DNA from: Candidatus Woesebacteria bacterium RIFCSPLOWO2_01_FULL_39_23
GTDB taxonomy: Bacteria > Patescibacteriota > Microgenomatia > UBA8517
Reading direction: 5' to 3'
Length of the DNA: 58,744 nt
Assembly: GCA_001793095.1 (NCBI GenBank)
Contig: MGHG01000011.1
Coordinates: forward strand, 1 to 58,744
Shown here: positions 6,447-57,987 of the stretch, piece after piece
Numbering within the stretch: position 1 is the stretch's first letter
How the letters are laid out: each line of letters starts with the position of its first letter
The notes under the pieces: generated by a model
The model's database searches: none
Told to the model about the DNA's origin: nothing
Seen by the model: the letters and a program-made list of their open reading frames with translations, nothing else
Position numbers and translations under genes: made by a program

Positions 6447-6554
6447 GGGTAAATTATACAGAAAATGAAACAAATATTCGTAACCGAAGCATAAATTTAG
6501 AAATTAGTAATTAGAAATTAAACAACACTCTTTTACCTTCAATATCGAGCCATG

Positions 6555-7208
6555 TTATTTCCTATCAGCATCGAGTTTCACTGCAAGCATTCCTAGCGTT
6601 AGTCTAACAATTTCATCTACAGCCCACTGGTTCTGACTATATCTTAGGAGGGTTTTTTCCGAATTTAAGAATACTTCTAAAGGTTCCGTGATAAGGCGCT
6701 TAACTCTGCCTTCATCTGTACCCTTAGGTGGCGTCAAATATCCTCTTCCAAGTTCATCTCGATACTCTACTTTTGGTTCGGGGAAATCTGTGTAAAACTG
6801 GAGACCACCTCTTCCATCCTTGTGGCGTACCACAGATAATGGTTTCAAGTCTGGGAGAGTAATCATTCCACCAGTTTCTTCAATAAACTCTCTTTTTGCC
6901 GTATCAAATATCGTTTTATCTGTACCATACTTCATTTTTCCTGCAGGCAGTTCCACCCTCCTTCTACCTTTCTCAACTCCGAACTCAATCAGAAGTATGC
7001 TATTGCTATTTCTTGTCCGTGCGATTACGGCCGCTGAGGAAAGATCAACTTCCAAATACGGATCTGGGTCATCTAAAAACACATCAAGTTCGTTGTATGC
7101 CTTGAGATGAAAACCCTCTATTTCGTAAAATGCCTTAAGAAGAATTGTGTCTGTTACATCTCCCTCTGATACCAGAAACGGTCTTTTCCCTTCAAGAATC
7201 TCAACCAT
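6555..7208 (-). CDS. NUDIX hydrolase
   Basis: ELPAGK......TIFDTAKREFIEETGG, a Nudix box with a small insertion. Confidence 0.75.
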   Translation of the reverse strand: MVEILEGKRPFLVSEGDVTDTILLKAFYEIEGFHLKAYNELDVFLDDPDPYLEVDLSSAAVIARTRNSNSILLIEFGVEKGRRRVELPAGKMKYGTDKTIFDTAKREFIEETGGMITLPDLKPLSVVRHKDGRGGLQFYTDFPEPKVEYRDELGRGYLTPPKGTDEGRVKRLITEPLEVFLNSEKTLLRYSQNQWAVDEIVRLTLGMLAVKLDADRK

Positions 7209-7225
7209 GACGGAATTGTAGCACT

Positions 7226-7798
7226 TCAGTGATTAATACTGCCACGAGGTTTGAATAAACGCTGTAGCAAAGGTTTGAAAGGTTGAGAAATAAACTTCTT
7301 GTCTAACTTAAGGCTTTTCCGTATTAGATACTTCACCCAACCGGCAGCGTGCCAGAAAAAGTCCCATATACTCCACAAGCCGGAAAAATAGTCGGAAACA
7401 ACAAAATCAAGTTTTATGCTGCTTGGGAAAACATCATTGAAAATCATTCTAGCTCTACCCATATGATCAGCAGAAGTGACAATTAGCGCAGAGCTAAGGT
7501 TGTGTTTTCTCATTAAGGATAAGGAAAACTTTGCGTTTTCATATGTATTAACCGATCTGTTGTCCTCAACAGTTCTCCCCTTTTCAACCCCCATACTTAC
7601 TAAATACTCTTTAGTGAGTTTCCCGAGTGGTTTTGAAGTGGGGTTAAAAAGCCCGCCTACTCCGCCTGTCGTAATAATATACTTTATCTTTTTTTCTTTA
7701 TAAAGCTCAAGAACTTTATTCATTCTTTTCTTTTGGCGACTCGAAAAACCAAGAGGAAAATAAGAATGACCAAGGATTATCCCCGCATCGTAAATCAT
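7226..7798 (-). CDS. YdcF/DUF218 (SanA/ElyC-like) family protein
   Basis: DAGIILG, IITTGG, EDNRSVNTYENA, IVTSADHMGRA. Confidence 0.85.
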   Translation of the reverse strand: MIYDAGIILGHSYFPLGFSSRQKKRMNKVLELYKEKKIKYIITTGGVGGLFNPTSKPLGKLTKEYLVSMGVEKGRTVEDNRSVNTYENAKFSLSLMRKHNLSSALIVTSADHMGRARMIFNDVFPSSIKLDFVVSDYFSGLWSIWDFFWHAAGWVKYLIRKSLKLDKKFISQPFKPLLQRLFKPRGSINH

Positions 7799-7928
7799 AC
7801 CTCAATTATACCAAAACATAATTTCTACAATTCAGGGTTAGGATTGAGAGATTTAGTAGTCCATTCCGCCGCCGCTGCAATATTAAATTTGTTTGACAGC
7901 AACTCCACATTTCTGGAATACTTAAGTA

Positions 7929-9140
7929 GTGGAATACTATCTTGGAACTAACAACCCTCCCAAAGTTGTCCCGCAAACACCAAACGAGGTATTACAGGAA
8001 TCAAAATCTCCTTCTCTTGTAGGTCAAGAAACACCCACACCGGATGAGCCAAACACTCAAACCAAACCCAAACGAAACTTTCCACTTTATTTAAAAGTAT
8101 CTATTGTGTTAATGGTAGTTCTACTGATTATTTCGGGTGCGTATTTTATTACTATCAAAAGAAATAAACCAACAACCAACAATTCCAACGATACTACTAA
8201 TAAAAACCAGCCTACAACAACTCAAGCGTTTCAACTAAATATCGCTCATGACTATACTATTGAAGTAAAGCAAAACCCTGGTTGTAAAAGTAAAGACTCC
8301 TCTACTTTCTGTCTTGCTGACATTTTTCTTAAAGACGAAGAGGGAGGAAATAGCGAATTCTTCATGACCCTAGATAATGTCCAGAATGACACTAGAGAAC
8401 CTAAAGTTGTCAATGGCAAGCTATTTCTAATTAAAAGGATCGTTGACGAGTCATCTCTTAACCCAACCGGTTACTACTTGCAAAATGCTATTTGGACCGA
8501 CGAGGTGTGGGTGTACGATATGTACAGGACAGGCACGAAACTTTTTTCCGCTAAAGGAGCCACTTTTAGTGTCAGTCCCGATGGTTCACTGGTTGCAGTA
8601 GAACCATTAGGCATATTAGAAAACCCATATAAAATAAGAGTTATTACTGTTGATGACGGTCAGCAGTCTTCCGACTTTTCGATTAATTCTGAAACGTGTA
8701 TACCCAATCCAACTATTCGAAGAGACATCGGCTGGCTTAGACTTCTTAGATGGGATAAAGGTAGTAAGATCTTATGGGGAGACTTTGAGGGAGAATATGC
8801 GATCGTGGGTTGTTTCTGGAATGTAAACATTACAAATGGAGAAATATCTTACTACTCAGTTCCCGGAATTCTCGGTGCGATGGTCGCTTTAAACACTGCA
8901 AAAATGGTTGCAGTCTATGATGACTTTCCTCCGTTTGTTGATGAGGATTCTTATAATGAATGGGTTAAAATACACCCGACCTATTCACTTTATATTTATG
9001 ATATACAAACCACAAAAAGCACAAAAATCGACATCTTCCCTACATCGTATAAGGGGGCTCTTCTCGGTGCCAGATGGATCTCTGATAACACCTTGAATTA
9101 TTCCTCTCCGGAAGGTCCAAAAACATATACTATTCCTTAA
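7929..9140 (+). CDS. Membrane-anchored extracellular protein, probable beta-propeller
   Basis: Pro/Gln-rich cytoplasmic N-terminus, one TM helix, Asn/Thr linker, repeats such as SVSPDGSLVAV, WDKGSKILW, WISDNTL. Confidence 0.7.
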   Translation: MEYYLGTNNPPKVVPQTPNEVLQESKSPSLVGQETPTPDEPNTQTKPKRNFPLYLKVSIVLMVVLLIISGAYFITIKRNKPTTNNSNDTTNKNQPTTTQAFQLNIAHDYTIEVKQNPGCKSKDSSTFCLADIFLKDEEGGNSEFFMTLDNVQNDTREPKVVNGKLFLIKRIVDESSLNPTGYYLQNAIWTDEVWVYDMYRTGTKLFSAKGATFSVSPDGSLVAVEPLGILENPYKIRVITVDDGQQSSDFSINSETCIPNPTIRRDIGWLRLLRWDKGSKILWGDFEGEYAIVGCFWNVNITNGEISYYSVPGILGAMVALNTAKMVAVYDDFPPFVDEDSYNEWVKIHPTYSLYIYDIQTTKSTKIDIFPTSYKGALLGARWISDNTLNYSSPEGPKTYTIP

Positions 9141-9186
9141 ACTGGATCTTAGATAATGATGAGGGATTAGAAATTAAGAATTGAAG

Positions 9187-56828: not shown

Positions 56829-56870
56829 TGAACGTAGTCATTGTATCGTAAATAAGAATTTATAAATACT

Positions 56871-56973
56871 GTCCCACTTCGCTAAAGCTACGCGGGACAC
56901 ACTTCGCATTTTACTTAAAAAGTGGTTTACCACGCGAAGCTACATTCATGTAAATTGAATGTAGCGAAGTGTG
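56871..56973. repeat. REP-like nested palindromes between the tmRNA 3' end and the GIY-YIG gene
   Basis: GTCCC..CTTCGCTAAAGCTAC..GGGAC; CACACTTCGC (56898)/GCGAAGTGTG (56964); GCTACATTCA-N7-TGAATGTAGC. Confidence 0.72.
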
Positions 56974-57364
56974 GAGACGGAGGGAATTGAACCCTCGTCC
57001 GAAAAAACATTATTTAAAAACTACTACAAGCTTAGCGTAGATTAAAATTTCCTTCTAAACTTACCCATACGCAGGATGCTTAAAAGTAAGACTTTAAATT
57101 TTCAGCTAAAAGCCAAAAGTCGATAGCTTTAAGCTACATCTCAACTGGTTTATGCCCAGATCAAACGGTTAAGAAACATTTGAAAGGACACCTGCTTAGG
57201 CGATTGCAAGATTGTAATCGTAAGCTGGACGCTCAAATAATTTGGCGTTTGTAAAATTTGACTCTTTTTATCCTACTCCACATAAAGTTTCGCAGGATAG
57301 GCATGTGTCGTCAAACATGGCTTGCAGTTTTTAAAAGAGCTTCTCGTCGAAACCGATCGTCCCC
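56972..57364 (-). ncRNA. ssrA: tmRNA
   Basis: 5' GGGGACGATCGGTTTCGACG; 3' GAGGGTTCAATTCCCTCCGTCTCCA with G3.U wobble; adjacent to smpB. Tag ORF at 57246-57196 reads AKLFERPAYDYNLAIA*. Confidence 0.95.
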
Positions 57365-57446
57365 CTGTTGGATAGCTTCGCATCCAACGGGGTCGTTAGA
57401 TGCTTATAGCTATCTAACTGACCCTCGTCGCCGAGTCAGACTCGGC
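57361..57446. repeat. Cluster of three hairpins between smpB and ssrA
   Basis: GTTGGAT-AGCTTCGC-ATCCAAC; GGGTCGTTAGAT...ATCTAACTGACCC; GCCGAGT-CAG-ACTCGGC. Confidence 0.7.
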
Positions 57447-57486
57447 TCCTCTCAAAATTCCTGCGGAATTTTGTAATGAATACATT

Positions 57487-57918
57487 CTATACTTTAACCC
57501 TTAATTCTCTTTCTATGTCCCTTTCAATATCCTTCTTCTTAATTAATGCTTTTTTCTCAAATTGGCGTTTTGCCTTAGCTAAGGCTAGTTCAACCTTGAC
57601 TAAGCGGCCTTTAGTATACATTTTTGTAGGCACTAAAGTCAATTTTTTAGCTTTGATTTTTGTAAGGATAGAAATAATTTCACTCTTATGCAGCAGCAGC
57701 TTTCTCGTTCTTGTCGAGTTATATTCTCCACCGGCATCACTTGGAATATTCGCATTTATTAAAAACGCTTCGTGATCTATAATTTTTGCGTAAGCATTAG
57801 ATAAATCACCCCTCTTTTCCCGAATTGACTTAGCCTCTCTTCCGAGTAATGATATACCGGCCTCAATTCTTTCAAAAAGGTTATAATTAAATCGAGCTTT
57901 CTTGTTGATAATTGTCAT
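57487..57918 (-). CDS. smpB: SsrA-binding protein SmpB
   Basis: NKKARFNY, EAGI.L.G.E.KSIR, R.RKLLLHK.EI, K...DKR-like tail. Confidence 0.96.
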   Translation of the reverse strand: MTIINKKARFNYNLFERIEAGISLLGREAKSIREKRGDLSNAYAKIIDHEAFLINANIPSDAGGEYNSTRTRKLLLHKSEIISILTKIKAKKLTLVPTKMYTKGRLVKVELALAKAKRQFEKKALIKKKDIERDIERELRVKV

Positions 57919-57987
57919 ACAATTAGGACAAAATTATTCTCTGTTGTTTGTTGTATGTTCTTTGTTCTAGTTTATATTCTACATTAA

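Follow-up and report, generated by a model that had tools for sequence, protein, structure and literature searches.

Genome-specific heptamer and octamer tandem arrays in spacers and reading frames of a Candidatus Woesebacteria genome

The stretch of DNA analysed here, referred to as the window, is the whole 58,744-nt contig MGHG01000011.1 of Candidatus Woesebacteria bacterium RIFCSPLOWO2_01_FULL_39_23 (assembly GCA_001793095.1). It is contig C11 of an 18-contig assembly of 1,126,128 bp that is 99% complete and 37-42% GC. The window genes include those encoding tmRNA and tRNA-Cys and a type-IV-secretion-like cluster, and short tandem arrays of 7- and 8-nt units lie both between and within the genes. 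These arrays, which are found throughout the genome, occur far above chance in spacers and in frame within genes, are composed of genome-specific units and are stable in the sampled population. The lineage lacks both MutS and reverse transcriptase. As the GroEL protein encoded in the window is 87% identical to that of Candidatus Woesebacteria GW2011_GWA1_38_8 and the best matches are all to Microgenomates/Patescibacteria, the host is a bacterium of the Candidate Phyla Radiation (CPR) rather than a cyanobacterium. An earlier sequence-only description of the arrays (the original prediction) had called the genome streamlined, which is correct for this 1.13 Mb CPR genome. Below, G000 is the window's own genome, G006-G021 and G114 are comparison genomes, and L092, L110, L228 and L229 are other loci.

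Tandem Repeats Finder (TRF) detected 20 arrays of period 7, 8 or 14 in the window versus 3.7 +/- 2.5 in segment-wise dinucleotide shuffles, and at scores of at least 36 the counts were 10 versus 0.6. The genome-wide TRF and autocorrelation analyses that the original prediction had called for gave the same picture. In genome spacers, the observed and shuffled counts were 40 versus 4.6 for period 7 (about ninefold), 31 versus 5.2 for period 8 and 13 versus 1.3 for period 14, and autocorrelation of spacer DNA gave maxima at lag 7 (z 7.7) and lag 8 (z 5.2). When only scores of at least 36 were counted, period-7 arrays numbered 18 versus 0.2 in spacers and 33 versus 1.4 (about 24-fold) in open reading frames (ORFs). 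Shuffled controls of equal periodicity would have spoken against the arrays, but periods 7, 8 and 14 stood far above the shuffles. The resulting catalogue holds 149 arrays in 1.13 Mb, with 84 in intergenic DNA and 65 inside ORFs, mostly mid-gene. The arrays had been described as intergenic, a label that does not fit these 65 nor the 50325-50471 region, which lies almost wholly within ORF 50340-52106. A typical array has four to five units; the length mode is 30-34 nt with a sharp drop beyond 36 nt, and only 10 of the 149 are longer than 38 nt. A loose regular expression for the unit families that allowed two mismatches per unit returned 507 "arrays"; it was too permissive and was superseded by the TRF-defined arrays.

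Twelve window sites had been listed originally. TRF gives a period of 7 or 8 at nine of these, and 55180-55218, the left arm of a larger palindrome, also has period 8 (P = 0.0005). The remaining two did not hold as heptamer or octamer arrays: 9164-9191 is at the chance level and 56455-56493 has a period of 11. In shuffle tests of each site, P at the best lag was 0.02 or less for all listed sites save 9164-9191. The window sites, with the P values of these tests, are as follows.

6494-6521: TTAGAAA/TTAGTAA heptamers, about four units, in an 81-nt spacer between two minus-strand genes (TRF 6497-6520, score 41; P = 0.001); a 24-nt identical copy lies at C8:61441-61464 and the fold is not significant.
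9164-9191: weak 7-nt periodicity overlapping the groEL stop codon (no TRF row at a score of 30 or above; P = 0.25; fold z = +0.3).
10853-10895, minus strand: AAATGCT-type heptamers, partly self-folding, in the groES-groEL spacer (TRF 10862-10895, score 36; P = 0.02); the spacer folds with z = -3.8.
10921-10952, minus strand: perfect 12-bp hairpin CATTCGGTAAT...ATTACCGAATG in the groES-groEL spacer, seen in the fold, with copies at C12:75754-75788 (91%) and C4:13511-13553 (88%).
17417-17473, plus strand: in-frame insertion of about 18 amino acids (KNSKKQNIQNSKKIINS...) in TsaD (Pfam TsaD), a decayed AAAACTC-type array.
20937-20968: AGTAGAT heptamers overlapping the leuS stop codon, between convergent genes (TRF 20937-20966, score 37; P = 0.006).
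34817-34851: TAACTNA and ACTAATG heptamers that fill the 41-nt spacer between two minus-strand genes (TRF scores 37 and 39; P < 0.0005); the array fits the TAACTNA family pattern (TRF span 34817-34848).
36343-36380: solo ACTCTTNN-family octamer array directly adjoining the start of the minus-strand gene 35968-36342 (TRF 36345-36379, period 8, score 35); not among the twelve original sites, and its fold is not significant.
50309-50317: TGGTATAAT box, an extended -10, upstream of ORF 50340-52106.
50325-50362, plus strand: heptamers of TAACTNA type that cover the short 5' leader of ORF 50340-52106 and its first codons (P = 0.01).
50363-50391, plus strand: (CAAAGAA)n, which encodes in frame the basic segment GKEQRAKNRG of a SpoIID-like protein (TRF 50366-50388, score 39).
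50402-50438, plus strand: T-rich TTGTATG/TTCTTTG heptamers, in frame as part of the hydrophobic helix LFYIVCCMFFVL (TRF 50409-50428, score 33; P < 0.0005).
50438-50473, plus strand: octamers CTTCNACT of the ACTCTTNN family, in frame as TSTLLLFHSFTL (TRF 50440-50473, period 8, score 47).
52109-52150, plus strand: A-rich TAACTNA array beginning 2 nt past the stop codon of gene 50340-52106 (TRF 52109-52144, score 42).
52207-52250, plus strand: T-rich TNAGTTA array, the right arm of an inverted pair with the preceding array, which stops 4 nt short of the ATG that begins gene 52254-53006 (TRF 52207-52249, score 56); it lies downstream of a TGATATAAT box at 52186-52194 and matches C3:14164-14195 over 32 nt at 94% identity.
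53004-53024, plus strand: (ATAACTA)n overlapping the TGA stop codon of gene 52254-53006 (TRF 53006-53023, score 36, 100% matches; P < 0.0005).
55176-55262: imperfect palindrome of about 87 nt beginning at the stop codon of gene 53282-55177, with four AGAGYNNN units, a loop and a degenerate NNNRCTCT arm (-28.6 kcal/mol, z = -4.8, 0 of 200 shuffles as good).
56455-56493: purine-rich period-11 repeat TAGGGTGTAAG between a small ORF and the tmRNA gene (TRF score 36; lag 11, P = 0.0025); no significant fold on either strand.
57933-57969: T-rich TTGTTTG/TTCTTTG heptamers in the divergent spacer before comF (TRF 57937-57968, score 36; P = 0.0005).
58523-58590, plus strand: CTAACTA/CTTACTA heptamers within comF (TRF 58526-58544), split by the GC-rich palindrome GGCCAGAGGCCTCTCTAGGCCGGAGG; array and palindrome are both in frame and lie just before the phosphoribosyl-pyrophosphate-binding FDDV motif.

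The hairpin at 10921-10952 is a dispersed repeat separate from the heptamer arrays. Period-10 repeats (TTCCTCTAAA, TAGGATTTTA) at 5185-5209, 5440-5478 and 5946-5974, in or beside the minus-strand ORF 5210-5941, are also a class apart from the 7- and 8-nt arrays. Among the other window genes, that encoding a TraG/VirB4-like P-loop ATPase of 1349 residues (30100-34149, minus strand) contains an intein with a LAGLIDADG homing-endonuclease domain.

Arrays are read in frame in Rho, IleRS, GatB, a P-type ATPase, RecR, RecJ, RecF, UvrA, TrmD, MltG-like proteins and TsaD. Comparison with solved structures gave about 19 extra residues in Rho, about 18 in TsaD (query residues 124-141 are unmatched in the PDB TsaD alignment), 5 in GatB and 3 in TrmD. 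In 45 of the 65 ORF arrays the sense strand is the A-rich one, which yields segments rich in K, S, Q, N and T, and T-rich ORF arrays encode L/V/F/C-rich segments in membrane proteins. In the window, ORF 50340-52106 encodes a SpoIID-domain protein in which the T-rich heptamers plus the octamers encode the hydrophobic stretch SVLFYIVCCMFFVLTSTLLLFHSFTLV. Given the start codon assigned from the sequence, the predicted N-terminal signal anchor of this protein (50363-50473) appears to be built entirely from repeat arrays, and simple-sequence DNA may thus have given rise to a protein segment.

The RecR array (C4:35095-35132, peptide KVKSQKLKV) leaves the protein length unchanged, and a loop of similar length is found in all 30 relatives. 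The heptamers of this loop differ among genomes: AAAAGTT/C in G000, G006 and (decayed) G016, AAATTGA in G014 and G008, A(A/T)CTCAA in G020 and AATTAAA in G021. The G020 unit belongs to the commonest family of that genome and the G000 unit to one of its own families. The single unit in which TAA would fall in frame reads TCA. Three genera have the same array (G000, G006 and G016 at loci C4, L092 and L110, with RecR proteins about 67-74% identical), indicating that some arrays are ancient and evolve as ordinary coding sequence. Moreover, its divergence from G006 is about equal to that of the flanks, and thus the array is old rather than hypermutable.

In spacers, a quarter of the arrays form arms of imperfect palindromes. 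An inverted partner was found within 120 nt for 21 of the 84 intergenic arrays versus 2-7 in controls, whereas ORF arrays showed no such excess. The window has two inverted pairs, 52109-52139/52218-52248 (I1) and 50362-50391/50408-50437 (I2). The 52109-52150 array forms the left arm of I1, whose 31-nt arms are 77% complementary, although the RNA fold is not significant (z = -0.96). The clearest example is a set of about eight octamer elements of the structure (AGAGYNNN)4-loop-(NNNRCTCT)4, about 80 nt long. Each begins at the stop codon of the preceding gene and ends 3-12 nt short of the next ATG, the genes that follow being secF, fusA, tuf, rplP, rplJ, htpX, a UDG gene and a pilN-like gene; the copy in the window is 55176-55262. 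These elements share their ends (ACTTAT ... ACTCT) and unit number, and seven of them fold at z -3.1 to -6.3 with 0 of 200 shuffles as good, as expected of dispersed intergenic palindromic repeats. No consistent sense-strand folding advantage was seen in these hairpins, and double changes occur in only 3 of 25 pairs when covariation is sought. Half of the octamer arms are solo and some lie within ORFs.

Among arrays in co-directional spacers, 38 of 63 are within 12 nt of a stop or start codon. A-rich arrays tend to be close to stop codons and T-rich ones close to start codons (Fisher P = 0.02), and in relation to gene direction the A-rich strands are divided 36 to 27. Shine-Dalgarno motifs are rare, GGAGG being found ahead of only 39 of 1183 called starts. 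Extended -10 boxes (TGNTATAAT) at 7805-7813, 36438-36446, 50309-50317 and 52186-52194 sit 7-60 nt upstream of start codons, and therefore some genes may be leaderless or nearly so. Note that the TGNTATAAT box occurs 5 times versus 3.3 expected (4 are correctly upstream of genes) and that a sigma-70 consensus scan gave 24 sites versus 23.7 expected. None of the RNA runs contained the groES-groEL region.

Unit types had been thought to recur at distant sites, and this was borne out. Identical heptamer units are shared by 39 array pairs, versus 3.8 when 7-mers are drawn at random from the genome and 10.6 when units are matched for composition, and identical octamer units by 24 pairs versus 0.4 and 1.1, respectively. 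Unit similarity is greater within a genome than from one genome to another (0 of 300 permutations gave so large a difference). The pattern of three TAACTNA units has 34 matches in G000 and 0-4 in each of 60 sister genera. The ACTCTTNN pattern has 26 matches in G000, the most among 301 genomes of the class; its ACTCTT core has at least one match in 41 of the 301 versus 4 for the reversed control. The enriched core trinucleotide is ACT/AGT in G000 (56 versus 30.5 arrays) and CAA/TTG in G020, and G000 units have base fractions of 0.54 A and 0.22 T.

Variation within arrays is position-specific. TAACTNA units depart from the consensus of their own array in 25% of cases at position 6 and 20% at position 1, versus 5-6% at positions 3, 4 and 7, and ACTCTTNN units in 27-33% at positions 7-8 versus 4-9% at positions 2-5. 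Position 6 of 154 TAACTNA units is A in 46, C in 38, G in 19 and T in 51, G being the rarest. With period-14 rows removed, unit similarity at lag 1 equals that at lag 2, and therefore adjacent units resemble one another no more closely than units further apart do.

The 16-mer said to be identical at 50419-50434 and 57950-57965 is indeed exact, and the match grows to 37 nt with 34 of 37 identities (50402-50438 versus 57933-57969). The non-coding array at 57933-57969 is thus the sister of a coding one (blastn-short E = 1.3e-5 against the genome). The window has 4 repeated 16-mer pairs versus 1.4 expected, and hence a lone pair is not unusual. Between unlinked sites there are exact matches of 24-25 nt plus 32-37-nt matches of 91-94% identity. 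To ask whether blocks of units are shared, we used a column shuffle, which preserves the consensus and variant frequencies of each array. Near-identical 26-nt windows between arrays numbered 1, 5, 22 and 59 versus 0.4, 6.7, 25.8 and 60.7 in this null, indicating that sharing is at the level of the unit and not of multi-unit blocks. A unit-order shuffle was discarded as the null because shuffling brings identical units together and so gave more long matches than the real data. The original argument that shared units speak for dispersal rather than local slippage therefore stands in part. Independent local slippage is insufficient, as units recur above composition chance and are genome-specific, but copying of whole arrays is unsupported. 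Pairwise alignments of array copies showed neither target-site duplications nor a common flank. Templating by a reverse transcriptase, raised in the original prediction as a point to test, is likewise unsupported, with no PF00078 match in the 99%-complete G000 or in array-rich G020; PF00078 is present in 8 of 31 relatives without relation to the four measured array loads. A phage vector was also considered and rejected, as the octamer pattern occurs in 22 viral contigs versus 13 for the reversed control, which is no enrichment.

Other Microgenomates share the excess: period-7 arrays in three locus sets numbered 32 versus 0.6, 13 versus 0.2 and 10 versus 0.2 (about 50-fold). The load at scores of at least 36 varies widely, being 80 arrays per Mb in G020, 45 in G000, 20 in G010 and 2.5, the background level, in G008. 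MutS_V is absent from 29 of 31 relatives, G000 included. MutS loss was rejected as the cause of the load differences, since it is absent in array-poor G008 and array-rich G020 alike. The groES-groEL spacer is 134 nt in G000, consisting of the dispersed hairpin repeat plus the 10853-10895 array, versus 3-10 nt in most of the closest relatives examined, and the spacer after recR is about 0 nt in G006 versus 158 nt, full of in-phase heptamers, in G000. These near-minimal spacers in relatives indicate that the arrays are additions and not ancestral spacer. The relatives of G000 in GTDB all belong to other genera, and metagenome homologues of gene 52254-53006 are at most 68% identical. Homologues of this gene in other lineages have heptamer arrays of different units in the equivalent upstream region. 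The array loci of G018 and G114, considered for a comparison of filled with empty sites, proved non-orthologous. Contigs from four independent metagenome runs have zero substitutions or gaps across 50000-58744, although contigs hide rare variants.

At 2300-2560 of the metagenome contigs L228 and L229, which carry homologues of 52254-53006, about 80 aligned nt, including the first ~58 coding nt of the homologue, are identical. Beyond this the two are unrelated, the break falling precisely on the final unit of a leader array, (GTTNATA)4, that only L228 has, and hence arrays may mark recombination breakpoints.

The arrays have the hallmark of the known prokaryotic heptanucleotide long simple sequence repeats (SSRs), namely tandem repeats of 5-11-nt units that are longer or commoner than composition predicts. 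In the summary of Mrazek et al. 2007 given in PMC4679880, such units occur far above expectation with heptamers the commonest, and polymerase slippage with a footprint of about 7 nt is proposed. The same summary lists Burkholderia, cyanobacteria, actinobacteria and Xanthomonas as richest in 5-11-nt repeats and places units of multiple-of-three length most often in coding regions. Heptanucleotide long SSRs are also noted in PMC4692102. The arrays described here resemble these in their excess of 5-11-nt units and predominance of heptamers. They differ in that the host belongs to the CPR and nearly half of the 7- and 8-nt arrays are in frame in conserved genes; they are also short, with 4-5 units each, and their units are peculiar to the genome.

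The closest resemblance in unit is to the TAACTGA direct repeats of marine Beggiatoaceae, cyanobacteria and some Bacteroidetes (MacGregor 2015, PMC4679880). Both systems have almost the same unit (TAACTNA here) in short sets (2-6 copies) that abut starts and overlap upstream stops, and in the forward orientation both give stops in all three frames. Both are found in ribosomal-protein operons where Shine-Dalgarno sequences are rare, and in neither is a mechanism of spread evident. However, Beggiatoaceae have one dominant unit with related heptamers rare, whereas here position 6 is free and there are many unit families, including octamers. The placement near starts and stops is shared (52109, 52207 and 53006), but a fixed TAACTGA unit with rare relatives is not found. 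In addition, forward arrays are mostly after stops rather than before starts, and in-frame copies lie mid-protein in essential proteins rather than only at the edges.

The heptamer short tandemly repeated repetitive (STRR) sequences of cyanobacteria had been named as a parallel, an analogy that is sound as to kind but not as to membership. Mazel et al. reportedly described STRR heptamers of heterocystous cyanobacteria in 1990, and small dispersed repeats are said to be nested in STRR arrays (Elhai et al. 2008). The units are STRR1 CCCCAGT, STRR2 TTGGTCA and STRR3 CAACAGT, and none of these is among the TRF consensus units of G000. Dispersed tandem heptamers, mainly in non-coding DNA, with lineage-specific units and nested small palindromes, as at comF 58523-58590, are common to both systems; phylum and units differ. 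In addition, STRR arrays are not known as in-frame parts of housekeeping proteins.

The octamer-arm elements resemble repetitive extragenic palindromes/bacterial interspersed mosaic elements (REP/BIME) and Correia elements, as they are imperfect palindromes of about 80 nt with at least eight dispersed intergenic copies that fill the whole spacer, including some within translation operons. Unlike these, their arms are 8-nt tandem arrays with a conserved AGAGT/ACTCT core plus 2-3 variable bases, half of the arms are solo and some are in ORFs. Rickettsia palindromic elements (RPEs) reportedly lie in frame inside genes (Ogata et al. 2000), and in-gene repeat units of Borgs are divisible by three and evolve rapidly. 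As in both of these, repeats of non-coding type are tolerated here in frame and add low-complexity surface segments. However, RPEs are palindromes of 100-150 nt rather than tandem heptamers, and in contrast to Borg repeats the present arrays are stable with units of 7-8 nt, such that peptide repeats recur only every 21-24 nt. In Borgs, tandem repeats give rise to protein regions that are disordered (PMC9879509). The literature searches made here turned up no account of arrays like the present ones in CPR bacteria.

Several explanations can be weighed against these data. The chance-level site at 9164-9191 and the expectation of one repeated 16-mer in the window might suggest chance periodicity of AT-rich spacers, or else an assembly artefact. 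This is refuted by the 9- to 90-fold excess over segment-wise dinucleotide shuffles, and the same sequence has been assembled independently in many runs with reading frames open through the arrays of conserved proteins; the probability left to it is close to nil. Hypermutable contingency (phase-variation) SSRs are known from host-adapted pathogens. Tandem repeats at gene boundaries and in genes would suit such a role, as units that are not a multiple of three could switch frame or promoter spacing upon a change in copy number. However, within-population copy-number polymorphism was absent from the arrays in the long contigs of the four runs. Moreover, the arrays are imperfect as well as short, several genera have kept the RecR array, and arrays are present in essential single-copy Rho, IleRS and GatB, in which frame switching would be lethal. 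The contingency-locus explanation is thus largely refuted and we consider it very improbable. The arrays could instead be functional cis-elements, either protein binding sites or structured leader/intercistronic RNAs, with a core kept by selection and a unit that co-evolves with a genome-specific partner. Selection acting on a motif would be an alternative to dispersal that the original prediction had not raised. Such a cis-acting role was proposed for TAACTGA repeats (MacGregor 2015, PMC4679880) and would agree with the fixed core and variable positions within arrays, with the location of the octamer hairpins (z -3.1 to -6.3) only 3-12 nt ahead of the ATGs of translation and other genes, with the ACTCTT core in 41 of 301 class genomes (4 for the reversed control) and with arrays of other units upstream of 52254-53006 homologues. 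The rarity of Shine-Dalgarno motifs (GGAGG at 39 of 1183 starts) also means that A/U-rich leaders could matter. Weighing against a cis-element are the same units in frame in loops of essential enzymes, the range of loads among relatives from 2.5 to 80 per Mb, and hairpins with no sense-strand advantage and almost no covariation. In addition, most window arrays fold no better than shuffles, no candidate binding partner was identified, and spacers of 0-10 nt at the same junctions indicate that the arrays are dispensable in sister genera. We therefore think a cis-acting function unlikely.

A mobile or "written" cassette of about 30-34 nt, inserted or overwritten by a dedicated activity (a nuclease, a transposase or unit-templated synthesis), would fit the length mode with its sharp fall above 36 nt, the genome-specific unit families at dozens of unlinked loci and the common ends and unit number of the octamer elements. 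It would also fit the 24-25-nt exact and 32-37-nt 91-94% matches at unlinked sites, with one coding and one non-coding member, and the RecR array that replaces a loop at constant length. However, the column-shuffle null yields near-identical 26-nt windows just as often, a reverse transcriptase is missing from the genome, the alignments showed neither target-site duplications nor a shared flank, viral contigs are not enriched and the contigs of the four runs show no presence/absence polymorphism. A cassette, which would be the strong form of the dispersal originally suggested, is therefore doubtful. A related and equally speculative proposal is that Microgenomates have an undescribed, sequence-specific DNA process with a 7-8-nt step, whose products would be arrays of 4-5 units, or about 32 nt, written across coding loops and at the boundaries of genes. 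Such a writer would keep the core motif, leave fixed positions free and change unit when its factor changes, and would thereby jointly explain the genome-specific units, the position-specific variation, the length mode and the constant-length replacement of the RecR loop. One tentative candidate would be a polymerase of gap filling or end joining that primes repeatedly on a short template specific to the genome; another would be a protein that propagates the very heptamer it recognises.

The explanation we favour, to which we would give about an even chance, is that the arrays are a lineage-specific form of the known heptanucleotide SSRs, which arise by slippage and template switching with genome-specific seeding, pass through a selection filter and are in some cases co-opted. 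Replication slippage plus template switching at a preferred 7-8-nt step would give tandem arrays in the direct form and paired arms in the inverted form, with the absence of MutS as a permissive background. New sites would be seeded with the favoured unit of the genome, either by short-patch copying from existing arrays or through an enzyme sequence preference, followed by local expansion. Selection would then remove all but the harmless placements, leaving A-rich units that contain TAA at a stop codon or beyond it, A-rich units free of stops in hydrophilic surface loops and T-rich units in membrane segments or 5' leaders. A subset of arrays has probably been co-opted, the candidates being the signal anchor 50363-50473 and the ~80-nt octamer-arm hairpins before translation genes. 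Several observations weigh against this explanation. Slippage alone does not predict genome-specific units (TAACTNA 34 versus 0-4 matches, and differing cores), nor does it predict position-specific variation within arrays or a 30-34-nt length mode with few arrays above 36 nt. Unit similarity is equal at lags 1 and 2, and the absence of MutS does not follow array load (2.5 per Mb in G008 and 80 per Mb in G020, both without MutS). Finally, the short-patch seeding step is one that we only infer.

The original prediction had found dispersal of such repeats surprising in a streamlined genome. CPR/Patescibacteria are described as streamlined, yet about 150 non-triplet arrays are tolerated here, many of them translated in essential enzymes. 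A practical consequence is that the arrays can mislead gene callers and aligners, through over-extended starts and apparent insertions; they could also serve as lineage markers. Should the arrays be by-products of mutation, they bear witness to an unusual replication/repair regime in a MutS-less lineage and offer a route by which new protein segments arise from DNA of non-coding type. If instead a factor reads or writes the arrays, the genome-specific units would be its footprint.

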